The position numbers and the translations under genes were made by a program. The notes beneath the pieces are model-generated. The model was not told the DNA's origin, made no database searches, and saw only the letters and a program-made list of their open reading frames with translations. 64,000 bases of DNA from the sequence record MK047718.1. One strand, 5' to 3'. The stretch comes from Escherichia phage p000y. This document shows, piece after piece, positions 3 through 64,000 of this stretch; the stretch's first letter is position 1, and every line of letters begins with the position of its first letter.

Positions 3-1397
3 CATAACGTAATTGTTAACTGGTGTGATATTATTCCTGACTTTGGTTCATGGTCTTGGAATGTTAACGCAATCTATGTTAAGGGTGATGAATGTCGATA
101 TAATTTCGATGGTGAAAATATCACTAACGTAGGTTCAACAGGTGGTAATGTTGTAGGAATTTATCAGTTCAAAGACTGGGAATTCTACATGGGTTCTACT
201 GATGAGGAAATTCACGAATACTGCAAAGGTCGTGATTTCGTAGAATTCCTTTACGGCAGTGCATTCAATAAATCAGAGCTTATGAATCTAATTGATTTAG
301 GTGATATGCCTAAACTTGAAAAGGCTCATGAAGTTCGTGAACTGAATCGTAGTTTTAATGCAGTTGAAATTGGCGAAGAAACTGTAACTAAATTCGCGTT
401 AACCGAACAAGGTCGAGCTCTTCAAAAAGATGAGATTTCATGGTATTTGAAAGTGAAATCAGATTCAGTTCCTCAGTTAGTTTCGGTAAATGAAAATAAT
501 TTTGAAATGGAACGTATTAAAGGTAAGCCGGCATTTGAATATATTAAATCCAAATCAAGTCTTGCTCGTCCACAAATTGTTGATGCAATTTTAGATGCAC
601 TGAAATTCAGCACGGACACTTATTTTGTAAGTCCTGAAACTGTTCGCCGTGATTTCACTAAAGAGTTCTATACGAAAGTTATTGATCGTTGTGAAAGCAT
701 TCAGCCATTGATTGATTCATTTGGTAAAATCACACACGTGAACTACACTAAAATTGGACGTCTGAAGCCAATGTTGAAACAAGCTTTAGAACATCTTATT
801 CGTTATCATAACCGTTCTCAGGGACAGTACTCTGTTATTCATGGTGACCCGAACTTCAGTAATACTATGATTACCGATAACGGCGAAGTCAAGTTTATCG
901 ACCCTCGTGGATATTTTGGTGAAACCAAGATTTACGGGCCAAAATTATATGATGAAGCTAAAGTGCTTTATGCTGTTTCAGGTTATGATGAATTCAATGC
1001 TAATCCGACCTGGGGACAGTTTACTATTGATGAAACAACTTGTAATGTGACTATTAACATCAATCCATTAGTTTACAAATATGGAAAGATGAGTTCGTTT
1101 AACGAGTATCATCATTTGGCTGTAGCAATTATCTGGATTGCATTAGGTGGTTATTTCAAGAATAATCCACTTAAAGCGGTTGCCGCATATTATAAAGGTA
1201 TGGAACTTCTGACTAAGCAATTACGTAACATGGGCCGTGTACTTCAAGACGGCTCTATTAGTTATGACGTAGCAGAACCTGTAACGGCTACTCTGATTAC
1301 AAAAAATCCTGGTAAATGGGTACTAACTGATAAAGAAACTGGTGTTTCCTATCGTCCAATCGGCGGCGATATCACTCATCAATGGGAACGAATCTAA
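3..1397 (+). CDS. Kinase-fold protein (APH/choline-kinase-like), probably 5'-truncated by the window edge
   Basis: Frame is open from nt 3 with no stop before the ATG at 189 and no clear SD at 189. Brenner-type motif HGDPNFSN...KFIDPRGYFG typical of APH/ChoK-like phosphotransferases. Confidence 0.5.
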   Translation, partial: HNVIVNWCDIIPDFGSWSWNVNAIYVKGDECRYNFDGENITNVGSTGGNVVGIYQFKDWEFYMGSTDEEIHEYCKGRDFVEFLYGSAFNKSELMNLIDLGDMPKLEKAHEVRELNRSFNAVEIGEETVTKFALTEQGRALQKDEISWYLKVKSDSVPQLVSVNENNFEMERIKGKPAFEYIKSKSSLARPQIVDAILDALKFSTDTYFVSPETVRRDFTKEFYTKVIDRCESIQPLIDSFGKITHVNYTKIGRLKPMLKQALEHLIRYHNRSQGQYSVIHGDPNFSNTMITDNGEVKFIDPRGYFGETKIYGPKLYDEAKVLYAVSGYDEFNANPTWGQFTIDETTCNVTININPLVYKYGKMSSFNEYHHLAVAIIWIALGGYFKNNPLKAVAAYYKGMELLTKQLRNMGRVLQDGSISYDVAEPVTATLITKNPGKWVLTDKETGVSYRPIGGDITHQWERI

Positions 1398-1783
1398 TGC
1401 ACCGTGTAGAAAACATGCTTAATCTTTGTTTTGATGTCGATGATTGTATAACAGAGTGGAATAACAATCGTGATTACGTGAACTTCAAACCAGACGTCGA
1501 AATGGTGTCTGCCATTAATGCCCTGTATGATGCAGGGCATACCATAACGCTTTACACTGCCCGTGGTATGAAGTCGGTAGGTCCTGGTCGTATAGCAATT
1601 GACATTCTCCCAAGTCTGATTCAGAACTTGGAAAACATTGGTTTGAAGTACCATAATTTGCTAACACATAAACCAGTATATGATTGGATTATCGACGACA
1701 AAGCTATGCGTCCTGACGAATTCAAAGCTCTTATGAATAAAGGCGAATTCGAAACATTTAAATCATATAAACCAAATCTATAA
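1397..1783 (+). CDS. Small HAD-superfamily phosphatase-like protein
   Basis: TAATG overlap with the upstream ORF. N-terminal FDVDDCIT (DxDx motif I), later TARG and IDDKA motifs consistent with a capless HAD fold. Track start 1382 is an alternative. Confidence 0.5.
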   Translation: MHRVENMLNLCFDVDDCITEWNNNRDYVNFKPDVEMVSAINALYDAGHTITLYTARGMKSVGPGRIAIDILPSLIQNLENIGLKYHNLLTHKPVYDWIIDDKAMRPDEFKALMNKGEFETFKSYKPNL

Positions 1784-1829: not shown

Positions 1830-2999
1830 ATGCAAAAAATGAATACTTTTAAAATCGGAACGAATTTTGATTTAGCTCTTCTTGATAAAATCGTAGAGCT
1901 CAATAAAACCTATCCTAATAGCTTGATAAACGAAGTATATGGCTCTACAAGAGAAATGGCTTTTGTAGCAGCCAGACCTGATTTTAGGCTTCCTGACGTT
2001 GACAAAAAGATGTTAGAAGACTACGTTAAACGTTGTAACGAATTAGGTATTTGCTTTAACTATACACTCAACACGATAAATCCTGGTTCAAAAAGAGAAC
2101 TAGTTGAGTGGAAGAAGAAAGCTATTCAGGATTATGTTCAGTATCTTTGGTCAATAGGCGTATGGCGTATTACTATCGCTAACCCTGTTGTTATGGAAAT
2201 TGTTCGTGAAGTCAATAAAGATATTGAGATTGAAGTTTCAACAATTCTACATGTCGATGCGGTAACTCAAATCAAATACTTACATGACCAATATAACATC
2301 AAAAAGGTCTGTTGCGGAATTCATAAGAACCGTTCAGTTTCTTTCCTGAAGCGTGCAGCAGAGTTTTGCAATAAGAACAATATAATATTTGAAGTTCTTG
2401 TAAATGAGTTCTGTTCTAATGCTGGTAAAGGGTATACAACACATTGTAGTTATCGTGACTCTTGCTATATTTTCCATAGTACTGATGTTACCGCTGATGA
2501 TGCTAAATCCTTAAATGGATATCCTATGCAGCACTGTATTAAAGCTCGTGATACAGACCCATTTAACTGGTTGAGAACTCGTTTTGTTCGTCCTCAAGAT
2601 TTGAAACTTTATAATGATATTGGTATCACTCAATTCAAAGTTTCAGGACGTACAGGTAGCACAGACTACATTTTGAAAGTTCTTGAAGCATACGCTTCTG
2701 AAAAGTTTGAAGGTAATTTGTTAGAACTGTGGAAGCCTTTAGAGACTATTTTCACTCTTGAAAATGAGACTGAGTTTTCACATACAGTAAATATTGAAAC
2801 CTCTTTGTTAGATGGCTTTTTAGAAAAAAGGTGGTTCAGACATCCAGATTTTGATTGTGCTAATGAAATCTGTGGGTCAACGTGTACATATTGTGAAAGG
2901 TATTATAAACGTCAATTATCTAAAAACGGGTTAGCAGAAAACTCCATATCTATTATTGATATAACTAACTCTGATGACGCTTTGAGGTACCCGGAATGA
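1830..2999 (+). CDS. Cys-rich 389-aa enzyme, peptidase-U32-like (RlhA/TrhP/UbiU family) by motif resemblance; alternatively an Fe-S protein with C-terminal CxxxCxYC
   Basis: Segments EVYGSTRE, FEVLVNEFCSNAGKGYTTHCSYRDSCY and ITQFKVSGRTGSTDYILKV resemble U32 TIM-barrel motifs as I recall them. C-terminal CANEICGSTCTYC cluster. Family call is unverified. Confidence 0.4.
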   Translation: MQKMNTFKIGTNFDLALLDKIVELNKTYPNSLINEVYGSTREMAFVAARPDFRLPDVDKKMLEDYVKRCNELGICFNYTLNTINPGSKRELVEWKKKAIQDYVQYLWSIGVWRITIANPVVMEIVREVNKDIEIEVSTILHVDAVTQIKYLHDQYNIKKVCCGIHKNRSVSFLKRAAEFCNKNNIIFEVLVNEFCSNAGKGYTTHCSYRDSCYIFHSTDVTADDAKSLNGYPMQHCIKARDTDPFNWLRTRFVRPQDLKLYNDIGITQFKVSGRTGSTDYILKVLEAYASEKFEGNLLELWKPLETIFTLENETEFSHTVNIETSLLDGFLEKRWFRHPDFDCANEICGSTCTYCERYYKRQLSKNGLAENSISIIDITNSDDALRYPE

Positions 3000-3235
3000 T
3001 TTCTAGAAAAAGTTTTAATTATAAACTTAACGAAGAGATTTTGACTATGAAACTGAACACTAACGAACAAATTCTTAAAAAGGCCCTTATGGGCCTGTTT
3101 GAAACCAAAGCGGCTAAAGTGATTAAAGAACCTGTTCAATTGGAATACTACACTGATGCATTCCTTCATAGTGTTCTTGGAAGTATAGATTCTGAAGCTT
3201 TACGTTATATCAACATTGTCAAGAAATTCAAATAA
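2996..3235 (+). CDS. Hypothetical protein (79 aa)
   Basis: ATGA overlap with the upstream gene; same-strand packing. Confidence 0.4.
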   Translation: MISRKSFNYKLNEEILTMKLNTNEQILKKALMGLFETKAAKVIKEPVQLEYYTDAFLHSVLGSIDSEALRYINIVKKFK

Positions 3236-3277: not shown

Positions 3278-3994
3278 ATGGGAAAACATAACACAATGAA
3301 ATATATCAAAGCCGCAGATTTTCAAACCGCATTTAAAGCAGTCAATCGTGAAATTTTAGAAAACCCGGAATTCGTAACTGATTCTCGTATTGGACGTTGT
3401 AATGAAATTGGGTCTATGACAGTAGTTGTTGACACTCCATCATCATTCAAAATGACCGACCCACGTATTAACCGCATCTCTTATGAATATGCCGAAGACT
3501 TCTGGAAGTTTATGATTTCTGGTGGTACCAACGCAGAAGAAGCGTTTAAGGCATATCCTAATGTCGCTAAATTTATTTCTAAACCAAAATCAGATGTTTT
3601 GCCGGCGAACTTCAACACTTTCTATGGTCCTCGCATTGCGGCCCAATTACCAACTCTTCTAAAAGAACTTAAAGAAAAACCTAACTCTCGAAGAGTTGTG
3701 TTCCAAATTCTAGAAAGTTCTGATCAGGCTTTGCTTGATTCGGACGAAACACTTGAATATCCATGTACTGACTCAGTAACTTATTATATTCGTGATGGTA
3801 AGCTTTATACCCACTGTCATATGCGTTCTCAGAACTGTGCTGTTGTTATGCAGTTGGATTTTTATCTCCAAGGAAAATTACTTCATTATATCGCTAACGA
3901 ATGCGGTGTAGAAGTTGGTGATTATACTCATACCATGGTAAGTGCCCATGTGTTTGAACGTGATTTTGATTATGTTAAAGGATTCCTTGACTAA
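3278..3994 (+). CDS. 42: Deoxypyrimidylate hydroxymethylase of the thymidylate-synthase family (gp42-like dCMP hydroxymethylase)
   Basis: PNSRR, PCTDSVTYYIRD (catalytic Cys) and MRSQN...QLD motifs align with T4 gp42 PDSRR, MCTNTVQYLIRD, MRSND...RND. Sits directly upstream of the uvsX block as in T4. Appears more diverged than neighbouring core genes. Confidence 0.75.
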   Translation: MGKHNTMKYIKAADFQTAFKAVNREILENPEFVTDSRIGRCNEIGSMTVVVDTPSSFKMTDPRINRISYEYAEDFWKFMISGGTNAEEAFKAYPNVAKFISKPKSDVLPANFNTFYGPRIAAQLPTLLKELKEKPNSRRVVFQILESSDQALLDSDETLEYPCTDSVTYYIRDGKLYTHCHMRSQNCAVVMQLDFYLQGKLLHYIANECGVEVGDYTHTMVSAHVFERDFDYVKGFLD

Positions 3995-4894: not shown

Positions 4895-5443
4895 ATGGCT
4901 AAAATTATTTTAGTAGATGGCCCGGATAATGCTGGTAAAACAACTTTCATTAATGACATAATGGAAATTAGTGAAAGATATGTAAAGATTGATTTCCCTA
5001 AACGAACAGTTGATGGACGTTTCGATGTTAAGTCTCGAAATGAAGTTGGCTGTTTCGAAACGATGTTGAATTATTTAGACCCTACTAAGATTTATCTGTT
5101 AGACCGTGGATATATTAGTAACTGGGTTTATGGACGTATTCGACAAGATGCGGACTCGATTCTTGACGTTTATGAACAGGACTATGTTCGTCTTTGCCAA
5201 AACCATGATGTGTTCACAATTATTTTAACACGTAACGAAATGACTGAAAGTTTTGAAGACGACCTTATTACTTTGTCTTCATTCGGTTTTAATACAGTCA
5301 TTTCACATTTTGAAGAGTTTGCAATTCATAACAAAATCCAAACGTATCAATTACTTAATCATGATGGTGCTAACAAAGTTATAGGATTTAATGCAAGCGA
5401 ACGTAATTATTTGATTACAGAAATTATCAAATGGGCTCGTTAA
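4895..5443 (+). CDS. P-loop nucleotide kinase, thymidylate-kinase-like
   Basis: Walker A GPDNAGKTT and LLDRGYISNWVYG (TMK-like DR(Y/H)xxSxxxYxG) motifs; 182 aa. Confidence 0.5.
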   Translation: MAKIILVDGPDNAGKTTFINDIMEISERYVKIDFPKRTVDGRFDVKSRNEVGCFETMLNYLDPTKIYLLDRGYISNWVYGRIRQDADSILDVYEQDYVRLCQNHDVFTIILTRNEMTESFEDDLITLSSFGFNTVISHFEEFAIHNKIQTYQLLNHDGANKVIGFNASERNYLITEIIKWAR

Positions 5444-5461
5444 GAGCCATTTAAAGTTTTA

Positions 5462-5488
5462 AATGCTGTATAACCCTTAGTATATAAT
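5462..5488 (+). promoter_or_regulatory. Candidate MotA-dependent middle promoter upstream of uvsX
   Basis: MotA-box-like aaTGCTgtA with TATAAT starting 19 nt after the TGCT core; same spacing as the candidate upstream of gene 39. Confidence 0.4.
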
Positions 5489-5541
5489 CATCTTATCTTT
5501 TAAACATGAGTAAAATATAATGATGCCTATGGAAAAATACA

Positions 5542-6714
5542 ATGTCTGATTTAAAATCTCGTCTGATTAAAGCTTCTACTTCTAAAATGACTGCAGACTT
5601 GACTAAGTCTAAGCTGTTTAATAATCGTGATGAAGTCCCTACTCGTATTCCGATGTTGAATATTGCATTAGGTGGTGCACTGAATGCCGGGTTGCAATCA
5701 GGCTTAACTATTTTTGCTGCTCCTTCTAAACACTTTAAAACGTTGTTTGGGCTGACCATGGTTGCAGCATATATGAAGAAATATAAAGATGCAATCTGTT
5801 TGTTTTATGACTCAGAATTCGGTGCTTCAGAATCTTATTTTCGTTCAATGGGTGTTGATTTAGACCGTGTAGTTCATACTCCGATTCAATCTGTCGAACA
5901 ACTTAAAGTTGATATGACTAATCAGCTTGACGCGATTGAACGCGGTGATAAAGTTATTATCTTTATCGATTCAATCGGTAATACTGCATCTAAGAAAGAA
6001 ACCGAAGATGCGTTGAACGAGAAAGTTGTAGGTGATATGTCTCGTGCTAAGGCACTTAAATCTCTGTTTCGCATTGTGACCCCGTATCTGACTATTAAAG
6101 ATATTCCGTGTGTTGCAATTAACCATACCGCAATGGAAATCGGCGGACTATATCCTAAAGAGATTATGGGTGGTGGTACAGGTATTCTTTACTCTGCTAA
6201 CACTGTATTCTTTATCTCTAAACGTCAGGTTAAAGAAGGTACAGAATTGACCGGTTATGACTTCACGTTGAAAGCAGAAAAATCTCGTACAGTTAAAGAG
6301 AAATCTACTTTCCCAATCACAGTTAATTTTGATGGTGGTATCGACCCATTCAGTGGCTTGTTAGAAATGGCAACTGAAATTGGTTTTGTAGTTAAGCCTA
6401 AAGCCGGGTGGTATGCTCGTGAATTCCTTGACGAAGAAACAGGTGAAATGATTCGTGAAGAGAAATCATGGCGTGCTAAAGCTACTGATTGTGTAGAATT
6501 CTGGGGACCGTTGTTTAAACACAAACCTTTCCGTGACGCAATTGAAACTAAATATAAACTAGGTGCTATCTCTTCTATTAAAGAAGTTGATGACGCTGTT
6601 AATGACCTTATTAATTGCAAAGCAACAACTAAAGTTCCGGTTAAAACTTCTGATGCTCCGTCTGCAGCAGATATAGAAAACGACCTTGATGAAATGGAAG
6701 ATTTCGATGAATAA
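5542..6714 (+). CDS. uvsX: UvsX RecA-like recombinase
   Basis: 390 aa; strong similarity to T4 UvsX from the N-terminus onward; synteny 42-uvsX-40-41. Confidence 0.95.
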   Translation: MSDLKSRLIKASTSKMTADLTKSKLFNNRDEVPTRIPMLNIALGGALNAGLQSGLTIFAAPSKHFKTLFGLTMVAAYMKKYKDAICLFYDSEFGASESYFRSMGVDLDRVVHTPIQSVEQLKVDMTNQLDAIERGDKVIIFIDSIGNTASKKETEDALNEKVVGDMSRAKALKSLFRIVTPYLTIKDIPCVAINHTAMEIGGLYPKEIMGGGTGILYSANTVFFISKRQVKEGTELTGYDFTLKAEKSRTVKEKSTFPITVNFDGGIDPFSGLLEMATEIGFVVKPKAGWYAREFLDEETGEMIREEKSWRAKATDCVEFWGPLFKHKPFRDAIETKYKLGAISSIKEVDDAVNDLINCKATTKVPVKTSDAPSAADIENDLDEMEDFDE

Positions 6715-7048
6715 TCTCGATGATTTAAATCTAGAAATCGTTGATGAATCCCCTTCTTCGGAAGGGGAAGACATTCGCAAAGAACGAGTGTTTAATGAAT
6801 CTCTTAAAATTGTCCGTTCAGCAATGGAAAATGTCATTCAAGAGATTCTGATTACGCTTGAAGATGGTTCTCATCATATAGTCTATATTACAAAACTAGA
6901 CTGGGTTGGTGGTAAAATCGTAATGGACTTTGCAGTTCTTGACCAGGGCAGAAAAGCAGAACTTGCACCACATGTTGAAAAATGTGTTACAATGCAAGTA
7001 CAACAAGCTTTTAATGAACGGACCAAGAAAAAATTTAAATTCTTTTAA
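6707..7048 (+). CDS. 40: gp40 head vertex assembly chaperone (position-based)
   Basis: ATGA overlap with the uvsX stop; about 113 aa; lies between uvsX and 41 as in T4. Track start 6686 is a TTG. Confidence 0.5.
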   Translation: MNNLDDLNLEIVDESPSSEGEDIRKERVFNESLKIVRSAMENVIQEILITLEDGSHHIVYITKLDWVGGKIVMDFAVLDQGRKAELAPHVEKCVTMQVQQAFNERTKKKFKFF

Positions 7049-7057
7049 GGAGTTATC

Positions 7058-8500
7058 GTGGTAGAAATTATTTTGTCTCATCTAGTATACGACCAGGCTT
7101 ATTTTTCTAAGGTCTGGCCTTATATGGATTCTGAGTATTTTGAGCGTGGACCGGCAAAAAATGTCTTTAAAATTATAAAGAGCCACGTTAACGAATATAA
7201 TGCAATGCCATCTATCAATGCGTTAAAGGTGGCTTTAGATAACAGTTCTTTAACTGAAGCCGAATATAAAGGAACTTCAGACCTAATTGAAAAATTGGCT
7301 GATACTCCTGAAGACCATGAGTGGTTGGTTAAAGAAACTGAGAAATATGTCCAGCAAAAAGCGATGTATAATGCTACATCCAAAATCATTGAGATTCAGT
7401 CTAATGCTGAACTACCTCCAGAACAACGTAACAAGAAAATGCCTGACGTAGGAGCTATTCCTGATATTATGCGTCAAGCACTTTCAATTTCGTTCGATAG
7501 TTATGTTGGACATGACTGGATGGAAGACTATGAAGCACGCTGGCTTTCTTATCTAAATAAAGCACGTAAGGTCCCGTTCAAATTAAACATTCTTAATAAA
7601 ATCACCAAAGGTGGCGCAGAAACAGGTACACTGAACGTTTTAATGGCCGGTGTTAACGTTGGTAAATCTTTAGGCCTTTGTTCACTTGCTGCAGATTATC
7701 TTCAAACAGGACATAATGTTCTTTATATTTCCATGGAAATGGCTGAAGAAGTTTGTGCTAAGCGTATAGATGCAAACATGCTTGACGTATCACTCGATGA
7801 TATCGATGATGGTAACGTATCTTATGCTGAATATAAAGCCAAGATGGAAAAATGGCGTTCAAAAACAACATTAGGACGTTTAGTAGTTAAACAGTATCCT
7901 ACTGGTGGAGCTAATGCTAATACATTTCGTGCATTGCTTAATGAGTTAAAACTTAAGAAGAACTTTGTGCCATCTGTAATCATGGTTGATTACTTAGGTA
8001 TTTGTGGGTCTTGTCGTATCAGAGTTTACACTGAAAATAGCTACACATTAGTTAAAGCTATCGCAGAAGAACTTCGTGCATTAGCAGTAGAATCTGAAAC
8101 AGTTCTATGGACTGCAGCTCAAGTAGGACGTGCAGCATGGGATGCTTCAGACATGAACATGAGTGATATCGCAGAATCGGCAGGTTTACCAGCAACGGCA
8201 GATTTCATGTTGGCTGTAATTGAAACCGAAGAACTTGCACAAGCTGAACAACAACTTATCAAACAAATCAAATCACGATACGGCGATAAGAATAAGTGGA
8301 ATAAATTCCTGATGGGTGTACGTAAAGGCAATCAGAAATGGGTTGAGATTGAGCAAGAAGGCATGAACACACCTAACACAGTAAATGAAAACGCAGGTGC
8401 TCAGATGCGTCAGGCAGAGGTGAATCGTACGGAACGCGTAGGTAAAGCCAAAGCAACACGTGCTGACCTAGATAGCTTAGCCAATGAGTTAAAATTTTAA
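7058..8500 (+). CDS. 41: gp41 replicative DNA helicase (DnaB-like)
   Basis: GTG start with AAGGAG SD; 480 aa, near-identical to T4 gp41 over long stretches (MVEIILSHL..., GVNVGKSLGLCSLAADYLQ). Confidence 0.95.
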   Translation: MVEIILSHLVYDQAYFSKVWPYMDSEYFERGPAKNVFKIIKSHVNEYNAMPSINALKVALDNSSLTEAEYKGTSDLIEKLADTPEDHEWLVKETEKYVQQKAMYNATSKIIEIQSNAELPPEQRNKKMPDVGAIPDIMRQALSISFDSYVGHDWMEDYEARWLSYLNKARKVPFKLNILNKITKGGAETGTLNVLMAGVNVGKSLGLCSLAADYLQTGHNVLYISMEMAEEVCAKRIDANMLDVSLDDIDDGNVSYAEYKAKMEKWRSKTTLGRLVVKQYPTGGANANTFRALLNELKLKKNFVPSVIMVDYLGICGSCRIRVYTENSYTLVKAIAEELRALAVESETVLWTAAQVGRAAWDASDMNMSDIAESAGLPATADFMLAVIETEELAQAEQQLIKQIKSRYGDKNKWNKFLMGVRKGNQKWVEIEQEGMNTPNTVNENAGAQMRQAEVNRTERVGKAKATRADLDSLANELKF

Positions 8501-60609: not shown

Positions 60610-61696
<1,087 letters not shown>

Positions 61697-61888
61697 ATGA
61701 AACGATTATATGAAGTGATTGAGGCCATCGAACATCATAAAGAATATTTGTTTGTAGCCTGGCCTTTAGTAAATGGACAGTTCGGTATTGATGTGCTGGA
61801 CTATGAGCATGAAGAACGTTTGGACGGCGGTATATTTGATAACGTCGACCAGGCAATTGAATGGTTAAATGAAAACTATGTACGATAA
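61697..61888 (+). CDS. Hypothetical protein (63 aa)
   Basis: Starts immediately after the pseT stop. Confidence 0.4.
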   Translation: MKRLYEVIEAIEHHKEYLFVAWPLVNGQFGIDVLDYEHEERLDGGIFDNVDQAIEWLNENYVR

Positions 61889-62093
61889 ACATCATGAAAT
61901 AGAAGATGAAGCATACAAAATGCTTCGTAAACTAGTGGGACTTAATATGAGTCCTACATTAATCAACAAACTCGCAGGAATTCGTAATGATCTGAATACT
62001 CGTTACAAAGGTGAATATCATGTAGAGTTTGTTCCTGTAGGTGAACCAACCGAGCGATTTGTTGTTCGAGTTAAAGTAAATACTGTGCACTGA
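61869..62093 (+). CDS. Hypothetical protein (74 aa)
   Basis: Overlapping, packed ORF. Confidence 0.4.
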   Translation: MKTMYDKHHEIEDEAYKMLRKLVGLNMSPTLINKLAGIRNDLNTRYKGEYHVEFVPVGEPTERFVVRVKVNTVH

Positions 62094-62100
62094 GGTAATT

Positions 62101-62376
62101 ATGTTCCCAACTTATTCTGAAATTGTAAAGGTAGTCTTCAGTCAGATTATTGCTAATAATATGTTTGAAGTGCTTGATAATGCAGCCGAACTCAGAGTTC
62201 ATGCTCAAGTAACTCATGTACTCAATGCTTTGCTCCCAGACCAAGTAGATTCTATTGCTATTACTCTTCTCCCTGGATCTGCACACGTCATCGTGGTATT
62301 TGATCTTGACGGCGATTTAGTTATCCAATGTGATATCAATTTCGGTACACAAAAAATTGAATGCAAAGCAATTTGA
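62101..62376 (+). CDS. Hypothetical protein (91 aa)
   Basis: GAGGTAA RBS. Confidence 0.45.
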   Translation: MFPTYSEIVKVVFSQIIANNMFEVLDNAAELRVHAQVTHVLNALLPDQVDSIAITLLPGSAHVIVVFDLDGDLVIQCDINFGTQKIECKAI

Positions 62377-62378
62377 TG

Positions 62379-62408
62379 GTTTACAACATGGTGGAGTTGT
62401 GATACTAT
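62379..62408 (+). promoter_or_regulatory. T4-type early promoter
   Basis: GTTTAC, 18-nt spacer, TACTAT; ACAAC/GTTGT inverted repeat in the spacer. Confidence 0.45.
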
Positions 62409-62436
62409 AACTCTACCAACAAATGAGGAAATAGAA

Positions 62437-62673
62437 ATGCTAAGTGAAAACCCAATTACAGTACACGAATTTCAGATTAAAGTAAAAGAATTTGCTCAAG
62501 CACTCATCAATAAAGTGTCTGAACGTTTCCAAGATGCAACATTACGAGTTATTCAAGAATCTCCACGTTCTTTTCTCATAATCGTTAATCCTAAAGATGG
62601 TGACCAAATTACTAATCTTAAATTAGGCAGTGATGGTCTTGTTGAAGCAACTCGAGTATATGGAACACTATAA
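62437..62673 (+). CDS. Hypothetical protein (78 aa)
   Basis: Early promoter 62379-62408 and GAGGAAA RBS. Confidence 0.45.
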   Translation: MLSENPITVHEFQIKVKEFAQALINKVSERFQDATLRVIQESPRSFLIIVNPKDGDQITNLKLGSDGLVEATRVYGTL

Positions 62674-62793
62674 TGAGAGCTATCTCATTACTATCGAGAA
62701 TGGTCATAAATCTGAGCACTACCAACTTAGCCTGTCTAATCCGGTTAAAGGTATTGTTGAATCAGAATCTGTTTATATCTCCTAAGGATTGTT

Positions 62794-63786
62794 ATGTTAC
62801 CTGTCGTCGGAAAACTTATTTCTCCAAAAGAACTGGCTGAGATTATTCCTTTGTCGGAAGCTTACGCATCACAAGTGGCTTCTCATCGCGAACAAGTTAA
62901 TTCGATTATGAACGGTGAAGACCCACGCAAACTTATTGTTGTAGGTCCTTGTTCAATTCATGACCCTATTGCTGCTGTTGAATACGGCAAACGTCTGGCT
63001 GAACTTCAAACTCGTCTTCCTAATGTTCTGTTAGTGATGCGCGTTTATTTTGAAAAGCCTCGAACTACCGTAGGTTGGAAAGGTCTTGTAAATGATCCAT
63101 ATCTTGACGGAAGTTTTGATATGAACCACGGTCTTATAGTTGCACGAACATTGTGTCGTAAACTTCTACGTATGGGACTTCCATTAGCAACTGAAGTATT
63201 AGACCCATTCACGATTAAGTATCTTTCTGGTATTTTCTCATGGGTTGCTATTGGCGCCCGTACGACTGAAAGTCAGACACATCGTGAAATTGCTTCAGGT
63301 CTACCGATGTGCGTAGGCTTCAAGAACGCAACCAATGGTTCTATTAAAGTAGCTACAGACGCGATGTATAGCGCCGCCTGGCCTCATCGGTATATGGGTA
63401 TGGACGTCGATGGTACTGTAGGCATTGTTGAAGCTGAAGGTAATCAGAATACGCATATCGTATTGCGTGGCGGGACCAACGGCCCGAACTATCATTCTTC
63501 TGATATTCAAGAAGCTTCTAACAAAGCAAGTGCAGTAGGTCTGAATCATTATGTAATGGTTGACTGTAGCCATGCAAACGCTGCTGGGCATTATAGCAAT
63601 CAAATTGGTATTGGTAAAAATTTAGCAGCTAATGATTTGGTCAAAGGAATTATGATAGAATCATTCCTACATGAAGGAAATCAAAAAATTTCTGATAATA
63701 TGTCCTATGGCGTTTCCGTTACCGATGCGTGCATCAGTTGGGAACAAACTAAAGAGCTGTTAACTTATATTAATAAGGTTCAATAA
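62794..63786 (+). CDS. 3-deoxy-D-arabino-heptulosonate-7-phosphate (DAHP) synthase, class I (AroG/AroF/AroH-like)
   Basis: LIVVGPCSIHDP, VMRVYFEKPRTTVGWKGLVNDP, GARTTESQTHRE, GFKN.T.G, IVLRGG, VMVDCSHAN and ESFLHEGNQ align with E. coli AroG motifs as recalled; 330 aa. Confidence 0.85.
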   Translation: MLPVVGKLISPKELAEIIPLSEAYASQVASHREQVNSIMNGEDPRKLIVVGPCSIHDPIAAVEYGKRLAELQTRLPNVLLVMRVYFEKPRTTVGWKGLVNDPYLDGSFDMNHGLIVARTLCRKLLRMGLPLATEVLDPFTIKYLSGIFSWVAIGARTTESQTHREIASGLPMCVGFKNATNGSIKVATDAMYSAAWPHRYMGMDVDGTVGIVEAEGNQNTHIVLRGGTNGPNYHSSDIQEASNKASAVGLNHYVMVDCSHANAAGHYSNQIGIGKNLAANDLVKGIMIESFLHEGNQKISDNMSYGVSVTDACISWEQTKELLTYINKVQ

Positions 63787-64000
63787 TGAAAGCTAGCACA
63801 TATCTTCAAATTGCTTATTTGATTTCTCAAGAATCAAAATGTTGTTCATGGAAAGTTGGTGCCGTCATTGAAAAAGATGGACGCATTATTTCTACAGGTT
63901 ATAATGGCTCTCCTTCAGGTGGTACAAACTGTTGCGAACATGCATCCGAAAACGGTTGGTTGAAGAATAAACCAAGCCCGGTCATCGTTGCTGGGCATAA
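63786..64000 (+). CDS. cd: dCMP deaminase (3'-truncated by the window end)
   Basis: MKASTYLQIAYLISQESKCCSWKVGAVIEKDGRIISTGYNGSPSGG matches the T4 Cd N-terminus as recalled; TAATG overlap. Confidence 0.85.
   Translation, partial: MKASTYLQIAYLISQESKCCSWKVGAVIEKDGRIISTGYNGSPSGGTNCCEHASENGWLKNKPSPVIVAGH

Follow-up and report, generated by a model that had tools for sequence, protein, structure and literature searches.

In Escherichia phage p000y (sequence record MK047718.1), a stretch of 64,000 nucleotides, referred to here as the window, carries between the genes pseT and cd a gene for a DAHP synthase (DAHPS), DAHP being the 7-phosphate of 3-deoxy-D-arabino-heptulosonate. The role proposed for it, to which a probability of about 0.55 can be given, is that the enzyme boosts the supply of prephenate for a DNA-hypermodification pathway based on an iron-sulphur (Fe-S) protein of the U32 family, encoded in the same window. 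This reading draws on the altered regulatory site of the synthase, on the joint occurrence of both genes among phages and on a chorismate mutase gene that lies beside that of U32 in related genera. The two window genes at the centre of the argument are the following:

62794..63786, plus strand: coding sequence of DAHPS, class I-alpha, PHROG 5045, 330 amino acids (open reading frame listing and Pfam, NCBIfam, PDB and PHROG matches).
1830..2999, plus strand: U32-family Fe-S protein, homologue of RB69 gp50, PHROG 5757 (Pfam U32, E=7e-11, 42.2 bits against a cutoff of 22.4).

The open reading frame (ORF) of the synthase begins at the earliest ATG available after the in-frame stop, and every one of the motifs listed for it in the initial annotation of the window (GPCSIHDP, VYFEKPRTTVGWKGL, GARTTESQ, IVLRGG and VMVDCSHAN) is found in it. 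It matches Pfam DAHP_synth_1 (PF00793) over profile positions 8-269 of 270 (E=7.4e-75, 251.8 bits, cutoff 25.5), as well as the NCBIfam aroFGH equivalog TIGR00034 (427 bits, cutoff 173.2) and NF009395 (454.8 bits, cutoff 343). The top matches in the PDB are E. coli AroF (6agm, E=1.5e-104) and then AroG (1gg1, 2e-91), and global identity to the proteins of E. coli K-12 (NC_000913) reaches 51.1% for AroF, 47.1% for AroG and 43.5% for AroH. The isozyme-specific NCBIfam cutoffs are missed both for AroG (NF006723, 364 vs 568) and for AroH (NF009396, 384.8 vs 463). The phage ORF encodes a class I-alpha DAHP synthase of full length that stands closest to AroF and is not specifically of the AroG type. 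The earlier assignment of an AroG-type enzyme between pseT and cd was accurate as to class, full length and location, but its label was imprecise, the protein being AroF-like with Gly at the specificity position.

With AroF, its best match among solved structures, the phage enzyme shares the catalytic core residues of the (beta/alpha)8 barrel and has Gly where Phe-sensitive AroG has Ser211. It differs from AroF in being 26 amino acids shorter, lacking the first ~9 residues (part of the inhibitor site) and carrying two deletions in the C-terminal half, in having I, K, P and Y at pocket positions 150, 151, 180 and 209 (AroG numbering), and in belonging to a separate, phage-only clade. Family and motifs are also held in common with AroG (1gg1/1kfl), from which it is set apart by a score below the AroG equivalog cutoff, by Gly for Ser211 and by the altered pocket and N-terminus.

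The active site was compared in an alignment of 25 phage-clade proteins, the 95 nearest bacterial homologues and AroF, AroG and AroH. All 14 of the AroG residues concerned with the metal, phosphoenolpyruvate (PEP) and erythrose-4-phosphate (E4P), that is C61, R92, K97, P98, R99, T100, G163, A164, R165, K186, R234, H268, E302 and D326 (AroG numbering), are identical in 25 of the 25 phage-clade members; these roles are those described in the structural literature on AroG. In the window enzyme the metal ligands Cys61, His268, Glu302 and Asp326 of AroG correspond to C53, H260, E289 and D311, and the equivalents of the PEP-binding residues R92, K97, G163-A164-R165, K186 and R234, together with the E4P motif K-P-R-T, are all identical. 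The motif KPRTT is present and is not of the type found in 3-deoxy-D-manno-octulosonate 8-phosphate (KDO8P) synthase (KDO8PS), which argues for E4P, and not arabinose-5-phosphate, as the substrate. No catalytic residue is missing on alignment; a loss of such residues is what the initial annotation had regarded as fatal to the assignment. A reading of the ORF as a KDO8P synthase was ruled out by the active-site motifs. The product is thus predicted, with high confidence, to be an active DAHPS converting PEP and E4P to DAHP.

The regulatory site presents a different picture. Phage-clade proteins measure 319-343 amino acids vs a bacterial median of 354, the shortening being due to a cut-back N-terminus: residues matching AroG D6 and D7 are lacking from 25 of 25 members, and one matching L8 from 24 of 25. 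In the same alignment, four positions of the inhibitor pocket are replaced throughout the clade or nearly so:

AroG P150: I in 24/25 of the phage clade; P in 87 of the 95 nearest bacterial homologues.
AroG Q151: K in 24/25 of the phage clade; Q in 93 of the 95 nearest bacterial homologues.
AroG S180: P in 25/25 of the phage clade; S in 92 of the 95 nearest bacterial homologues.
AroG F209: Y in 25/25 of the phage clade; F in 92 of the 95 nearest bacterial homologues.

The corresponding residues of the window enzyme are I141, K142, P171 and Y200, which do not make an inhibitor pocket of the AroG/F/H type. At such pocket sites single changes confer feedback resistance (AroG P150L and S180F, AroF P148L), as N-terminal deletions also do. 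The phage clade resembles these resistant AroG and AroF alleles, engineered or selected, in being altered at positions where single changes abolish inhibition with catalysis unharmed; it differs in that its changes arose naturally, are several in number and have become fixed throughout a viral clade. Judged from the alignment, the allosteric site of the phage enzymes is rebuilt or dismantled, with the N-terminal lid deleted and four pocket residues replaced. Inhibition by aromatic amino acids (Phe/Tyr) has probably been lost or changed, which would make the enzyme insensitive to feedback, and a switch to another effector may have taken place instead. The suggestion, made already in the initial annotation, that the enzyme might escape host feedback inhibition is upheld as far as the sequence reaches, since the N-terminal segment is gone and P150, Q151, S180 and F209 are substituted clade-wide.

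The second member of the proposed partnership belongs to a cluster whose function is known in part from RB69. In RB69 DNA, cytosine is replaced by arabinosyl-5-hydroxycytosine (ara-5hoC), and gp48, a ThyA homologue, makes 5-hydroxy-dCMP with flavin and O2 (PMC13326640, from 2026). The U32 protein gp50 is the sole ara-5hoC cluster gene without an assigned role, apart from a vague guess as a 'sugar or heterocycle reductase', and phages of this lineage make arabinose-5-phosphate with an isomerase of their own (PMC13326640). In the window, the U32 gene is accompanied by:

189..1783, plus strand: gp52:53-like kinase/nucleotidyltransferase and gp51-like HAD phosphatase, for UDP-arabinose synthesis (by synteny with RB69; roles from PMC13326640).
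2996..3235, plus strand: 79-amino-acid ORF of the RB69ORF049c family, phrog_8601, in the slot of the chorismate mutase of other genera.
3278..3994, plus strand: thymidylate-synthase homologue, a putative gp48-like 5-hydroxy-dCMP synthase (Pfam; function by synteny).

The window U32 protein is 99.2% identical to RB69 gp50, and its comparison with E. coli RlhA, TrhP, UbiU and UbiV by hhalign gives a probability of 88% (E=2.8e-6), with C206 and C212 of the phage protein aligned to C169 and C176 of RlhA. The latter two residues lie in the U32 motif and are essential for the 5-hydroxycytidine that RlhA makes in 23S rRNA, a reaction that needs Fe-S biogenesis and prephenate synthesis (PMC5727448). 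For UbiU/UbiV, prephenate acts as the oxygen donor in O2-independent hydroxylation, and the same has been proposed for RlhA, TrhP and all U32 hydroxylases (PMC10990095). In three genera, 13 Cys residues of the phage U32 (all that it has) do not vary, among them a C-terminal CX4CX3CX2C cluster that recalls the essential C-terminal Cys of RlhA. The protein is also unusually conserved, with 81.5-89% identity between genera whose PseT is 45-67% identical.

The known U32 hydroxylases, RlhA (ho5C, 23S rRNA), TrhP (with TrhO; ho5U, tRNA) and UbiU-UbiV (versus UbiI/H/F), have O2-dependent twins. The phage protein has the Cys pair essential in RlhA; as in TrhO/TrhP and UbiIHF/UbiUV, it stands near an O2-dependent hydroxylase, and its product would be the base made by RlhA, 5-hydroxycytosine. 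Genes of the prephenate pathway are genetically linked to the phage protein. It would differ from the known U32 hydroxylases in acting on a deoxynucleotide or on DNA, instead of RNA or a quinone, and in serving a demand that is stoichiometric for a whole genome and not for a single site, and for this reason dedicated supply enzymes in the phage are proposed. Further, the ara-5hoC phage DLP3, which infects the strict aerobe Acinetobacter, has the cluster without U32, and no Acinetobacter phage record matches U32, except possibly four MD-2021a contigs, themselves DAHPS matches. A role of U32 as an anaerobic cytosine-C5 hydroxylase can be advanced tentatively, at slightly less than even odds.

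The joint distribution of the two genes was examined by tblastn over 50,697 phage records, with the inclusion of a chimeric U32+DAHPS query. U32 was found in 221 records and DAHPS in 212, and the chimeric query matched 242 records at 434 places, which puts both genes in ~191 records where chance would give ~1; the result was reproduced with the proteins of Serratia phage X20. DAHPS is restricted to genomes marked by U32, and so belongs with the ara-5hoC gene set, in ~191 of 212 records, which are not phylogenetically independent of each other. Among the ~21 records with DAHPS only, 17 carry unrelated proteins (<60% identity), namely human-faecal 'Bacteriophage sp.' contigs, Acinetobacter MD-2021a contigs, a Salmonella contig and Aeromonas HJ05; the others, where identifiable, are pieces of multi-contig submissions. 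Those records with U32 only that were identified comprise RB69, mar005P1, moha, Yersinia Tegunaviruses, Pectobacterium PM2, the partial phiE142 and two genome fragments. Both genes are missing from about 400 further T4-like records with a match to the pseT-cd region. Sorted by gene set, the lineages are distributed as follows:

U32, chorismate mutase and DAHPS: most lineages.
U32 and chorismate mutase only: Tegunavirus and Pectobacterium PM2.
U32 and DAHPS only: Mosigvirus and Bragavirus.
U32 alone: a few Mosigvirus strains.
DAHPS but no U32: not seen in any complete T4-like genome.

Each of the U32 lineages scored has chorismate mutase, DAHPS or both, apart from the few Mosigvirus strains, and such an asymmetry would be expected if U32 had DAHPS and chorismate mutase as its accessories.

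Chorismate mutase would be the link between the synthase and the proposed hydroxylase. In Klebsiella phage PWKp16, a gene for an 81-amino-acid chorismate mutase of the AroQ type overlaps the stop codon of U32 (39.5 bits against a cutoff of 27 with Pfam CM_2; locus 6161-6406), and its counterpart in Serratia phage X20 lies at locus 5158-5502. Homologues occupy the slot between U32 and the ThyA-like gene in 51 records with 12 host-genus names: Klebsiella, Serratia, Erwinia, Kosakonia, Yersinia, Enterobacter, Edwardsiella, Pectobacterium, Escherichia (EcS1), Morganella, Providencia and Shewanella. The phage enzyme is monofunctional, translationally coupled to U32 and annotated as hypothetical in most records. 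In a thin, three-sequence alignment with E. coli TyrA, the phage proteins keep the N-terminal Arg/Arg/Lys positions and have an apparent Val for the Arg of the E-R-E motif of TyrA, which could mean low intrinsic activity or the need for a partner. The 79-amino-acid ORF that fills this slot in the window (2996-3235) has no Pfam or NCBIfam match, no BLAST similarity to chorismate mutase and an hhalign probability of 0.1%. Its homologues are confined to Mosigvirus, some of them truncated to 47-58 amino acids, and its evolution is far more rapid than that of the adjacent genes (73-96% identity vs 99% for U32); it may be a decaying or a replacement gene.

The initial annotation had raised the possibility that the synthase supplies chorismate or prephenate to the U32-like enzyme at 1830-2999. 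As far as can be read from the genomes, this idea holds: U32 is real, ~191 records share both genes and a chorismate mutase lies downstream of U32 in related genera. In the model proposed, DAHPS would keep running during inhibition or repression of host AroF, AroG and AroH and after the shut-off of host transcription, and would drive carbon through the shikimate pathway of the host towards chorismate and on to prephenate, the aromatic amino acids not being its likely purpose. The step from chorismate to prephenate would be provided by the phage AroQ chorismate mutase in most related genera, and by host PheA/TyrA in the window phage, since no chorismate mutase is detectable in it. Prephenate would then serve as the oxygen donor for U32, acting as an O2-independent hydroxylase that leads to 5-hydroxy(deoxy)cytosine in the ara-5hoC pathway and as the anaerobic counterpart of the O2- and flavin-dependent 5-hydroxy-dCMP synthase encoded two genes downstream. 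U32 is proposed as such an O2-independent route because DAHPS, chorismate mutase and U32 all converge on prephenate.

The demand can be estimated by simple arithmetic. A genome of ~168 kb with 37.5% GC contains ~63,000 cytosines, so that a burst of 100-200 would call for ~10^7 hydroxylations, about 10-20% of the aromatic flux per cell generation; a demand of this size would make a dedicated entry enzyme worth carrying. A functional tie of DAHPS to the U32/prephenate module is thought somewhat more probable than its absence. The broader proposal, that T4-like phages of facultatively anaerobic hosts have a dedicated prephenate-supply module (a deregulated DAHPS, mostly with AroQ) feeding a viral U32 hydroxylase, is a possibility held with a little less than even confidence.

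The DAHPS gene call itself is not new. The region 60700-64000 is 98-99% identical to many coliphages of the genus Mosigvirus (RB69-like, T4-related), the DAHPS protein is 100% identical to that of phage vB_EcoM_WFbE185, and the gene is annotated in >100 GenBank phage genomes as phospho-2-dehydro-3-deoxyheptonate aldolase, aroF or DAHP synthase. PHROG 5045 places it in the category 'moron, auxiliary metabolic gene', the genome note on phiC120 mentions it in passing (PMC8022965), and Olsen et al. listed the DAHP synthase of Mosigvirus among putative auxiliary metabolic genes (AMGs) of unknown function (bioRxiv 10.1101/2020.01.19.911818). It is already catalogued. In the searchable literature, no paper connects the cytosine modification of phages with DAHPS, chorismate mutase, prephenate or U32, and the remodelling of the regulatory site and the prephenate link of DAHPS, chorismate mutase and U32 appear to be undescribed.

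As regards origin, the nearest homologues of the protein (55-99% identity) are all phage or phage-like; the best bacterial ones, from mixed phyla, are 50-54% identical, with enterobacterial AroF at ~52%. The phylogeny suggested in the initial annotation as a means of dating the transfer was run as a neighbour-joining tree, in which 25 of 25 phage sequences form one clade. GC content at third codon positions (GC3) is 0.296 vs 0.297 +/- 0.023 for the mean of 20 other window genes. DAHPS occupies the slot between pseT and cd in at least four annotated genera (Mosigvirus, Winklervirus X20, Bragavirus PM2 and Marfavirus PhiKpNIH-6), as well as in 10 of 10 Straboviridae-type loci of IMG/VR, and between genera it is 58-68% identical vs 45-67% for the adjacent PseT. 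From the gene of phage JK45 it differs by 2 synonymous and 3 non-synonymous codons, too few for dN/dS. Recent capture from a host was ruled out by the bacterial identity of 50-54%, the phage-like GC3, the monophyly and the synteny across genera. By these signs DAHPS is an old, vertically kept, selected and fully ameliorated phage gene. Its description as inserted between pseT and cd was correct in position, but the event is not recent, the gene being old in the phage lineage.

Several observations concern the wider occurrence of the enzyme. Shigella phage JK45 (NC_054940.1) is assigned to Tequatrovirus in the RefSeq taxonomy, yet its region is 98.9% identical to the Mosigvirus window and includes DAHPS, and its taxonomic label may be wrong. 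A cluster representative 99% identical to the window DAHPS is named as an Escherichia coli protein by NCBI (164 members), which suggests phage sequence within bacterial assemblies. Aeromonas phage HJ05 (79 kb, non-T4-like) has an unrelated, longer DAHPS of 387 amino acids, 38% identical (locus 6257-7904), adjoining a methyltransferase and an Acb2/Tad1-like anti-defence gene, with no U32 or chorismate mutase nearby. Dozens of contigs from giant-virus metagenome-assembled genomes (GVMAG), and several contigs >170 kb, carry class I homologues that are 40-48% identical. Acquisition of DAHPS by viruses seems to have recurred, far outside the T4-like phages. The 80 IMG/VR loci comprise 10 of Straboviridae type, 3 bacterial aroF-tyrA stretches and, for the rest, DAHPS-only contigs, many of them from giant-virus metagenome-assembled genomes; among these 80 loci, no independent viral lineage outside Straboviridae has DAHPS beside U32 or chorismate mutase.

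Around the DAHPS gene, the window contains the following features:

60797..61696, plus strand: pseT, polynucleotide kinase/phosphatase (Pfam HAD_PNKP and AAA_33).
61697..62673, plus strand: four small ORFs, equivalents of RB69 cd.4, ORF227, cd.3 (DUF7355) and cd.2 (DUF7320).
62380..62408, plus strand: early-promoter-like site (G)TTTACA-17-TACTAT with upstream TG, between cd.3 and cd.2 (putative function, from position only).
62660..62785, plus strand: small ORF, phrog_15876, 41 amino acids from its ATG, absent from RB69 together with DAHPS.
62784..62788, plus strand: Shine-Dalgarno-like AAGGA, 5 nucleotides upstream of the DAHPS ATG (read from the sequence).
63786..64000, plus strand: 5' part of cd (dCMP deaminase), which runs off the window; its start overlaps the DAHPS stop (TAATG).

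In T4 the interval between pseT and cd does hold only small ORFs, as had been said of it (cd.5, cd.4, cd.3, cd.2 and cd.1), and DAHPS sits at the position of T4 cd.1. The small ORF of phrog_15876 (41-50 amino acids; in phage JK45 its annotation begins at 62633) has its first part in common with the end of cd.2 and stops 8 nucleotides before DAHPS. T4 has an early promoter between cd.3 and cd.2, the place equivalent to that of the promoter-like site of the window; promoter-like matches in the DAHPS region are not above the count expected from shuffled sequence, and no promoter or terminator of its own was found for DAHPS in the 120 nucleotides upstream. The site at 62380..62408 is probably the promoter for cd.2, the small ORF, DAHPS and cd, and these four genes are probably transcribed early and together. 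DAHPS is an early-region gene of the window, among those of nucleotide metabolism (nrdA/B, td, frd and cd).

RB69 lacks DAHPS, and in its genome cd.2 abuts cd. Compared with RB69, the window has an extra segment at 62689-63782, comprising the small ORF and DAHPS, which is bounded by an imperfect direct repeat of 20 nucleotides:

62670..62689, plus strand: left copy, ataatgagagctatctcatt, at the cd.2 stop and the left edge of the segment absent from RB69.
63783..63802, plus strand: right copy, ataatgaaagctagcacata, 16/20 identical to the left one, spanning the DAHPS stop and the cd start.

The left copy opens a vestigial ORF that begins M-R-A-I, and cd begins M-K-A-S. The arrangement is compatible with loss of the segment in RB69 by recombination between the repeats.

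Several points weigh against a role of DAHPS in supplying U32 with prephenate. RB69 makes ara-5hoC (PMC13326640) without DAHPS, which is hence not required for the modification; nor is a chorismate mutase detectable in RB69, which yet fully modifies its DNA aerobically. As RB69 modifies its DNA without it, DAHPS is dispensable at least in aerobic laboratory culture and would be at most accessory or conditional; its absence from RB69 fits such a role and equally weakens the case. Tegunavirus and Pectobacterium PM2 keep U32 and chorismate mutase without DAHPS, and in the 64-kb window no chorismate mutase was found by tblastn with two phage chorismate mutases. The counts of joint occurrence are dominated by ~140 near-identical Mosigvirus genomes and by shared ancestry, and the association of U32 and DAHPS, ~60 kb apart, could be largely phylogenetic hitch-hiking. 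Moreover, BLASTP of phage U32 against RlhA, TrhP, UbiU and UbiV is not significant, the phage protein being very divergent.

The main alternative to this role in prephenate supply is that DAHPS is a generic AMG, raising Phe, Tyr and Trp for phage protein synthesis after host shut-off. An intact and apparently deregulated enzyme would suit this purpose, PHROGs and Olsen et al. file the gene accordingly, and HJ05 and many giant-virus metagenome-assembled genomes have unrelated DAHPS genes without U32 or chorismate mutase nearby. A general need for amino acids sits badly, however, with the absence of DAHPS from the ~400 T4-like records, which are of comparable genome size and mostly from Escherichia and Shigella hosts, and with its confinement to U32-bearing ara-5hoC lineages. 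A monofunctional chorismate mutase beside U32 and the cytosine hydroxylase points to prephenate and not to amino acids, and genes for the later steps towards the amino acids were not seen in the phages; this explanation is considered unlikely. Chorismate is also a branch point of biosynthesis, and DAHPS might supply it for p-aminobenzoate (pABA) and folate (dTMP synthesis, baseplate), for quinones or for a siderophore, the more so as the folate enzymes td and frd are likewise encoded in the window. But T4 and its relatives share these folate needs and do without DAHPS, and chorismate mutase diverts chorismate from pABA, quinones and enterobactin to prephenate, so that a purpose of this kind is quite improbable.

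Two further explanations have still less in their favour. An altered substrate, by which the enzyme would join PEP to phage arabinose-5-phosphate in the manner of KDO8P synthase, or would make another sugar acid for glycosylation, is brought to mind by the arabinose-5-phosphate isomerase of the phage lineage and by the common membership of DAHPS and KDO8PS in PF00793. It is very improbable given that the E4P-site and metal residues (KPRTT and Cys-His-Glu-Asp) are kept and the aroFGH equivalog cutoff is passed; in addition, the use of arabinose-5-phosphate would compete with UDP-arabinose synthesis. Least probable of all is that the gene is a neutral passenger, or a relic in decay, and plays no part in infection. 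RB69 and a small number of other Mosigvirus strains have lost it and show no obvious defect, and the flanking short direct repeat eases deletion, but a relic would hardly be full length, with catalytic residues intact in 25 of 25 members from genera only 56-77% identical, more conserved than PseT and ameliorated in codon composition.

The role preferred here, supply of prephenate to U32, has partial precedents. In the AroA(Q) fusion of Bacillus (NF009239), the first shikimate enzyme is likewise paired with an AroQ chorismate mutase, and the CM-DAHPS complex of M. tuberculosis is a comparable pairing; the phage chorismate mutase matches the chorismate mutase domain of NF009239 weakly. Both systems differ from that of the phages, whose genes lie ~60 kb apart and whose DAHPS is of class I-alpha. 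As with the precursor-supply AMGs of phages, such as the pentose-phosphate and nucleotide genes of cyanophages or nrd, td, frd and cd of T4, the phage DAHPS would rewire host central metabolism; it differs from them in its target, since the shikimate pathway is not conventionally connected with the making of nucleotides.

It is this context, and not the routine gene call, that gives DAHPS a testable function. Taken together, a deregulated DAHPS, a chorismate mutase beside U32 and the prephenate dependence of U32 enzymes suggest a route to the modified base that needs no oxygen. The U32 reading could explain the orphan gene of the ara-5hoC cluster, considering that the characterised hydroxylase needs O2 and that these phages live in gut and sewage hosts. 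If this is true, prephenate would for the first time be seen to donate oxygen in DNA modification, beyond RNA and quinones, and the class of O2-independent hydroxylases would gain its first viral member; a function would be found for RB69 gp50, and the DNA hypermodification of these phages in the anoxic gut would be explained. If confirmed, the system would be a case of a virus rewiring the shikimate pathway for nucleic-acid modification, would provide a naturally feedback-resistant DAHPS for metabolic engineering and would bear on the evasion of restriction by Mosigvirus-type therapeutic phages under anoxia.

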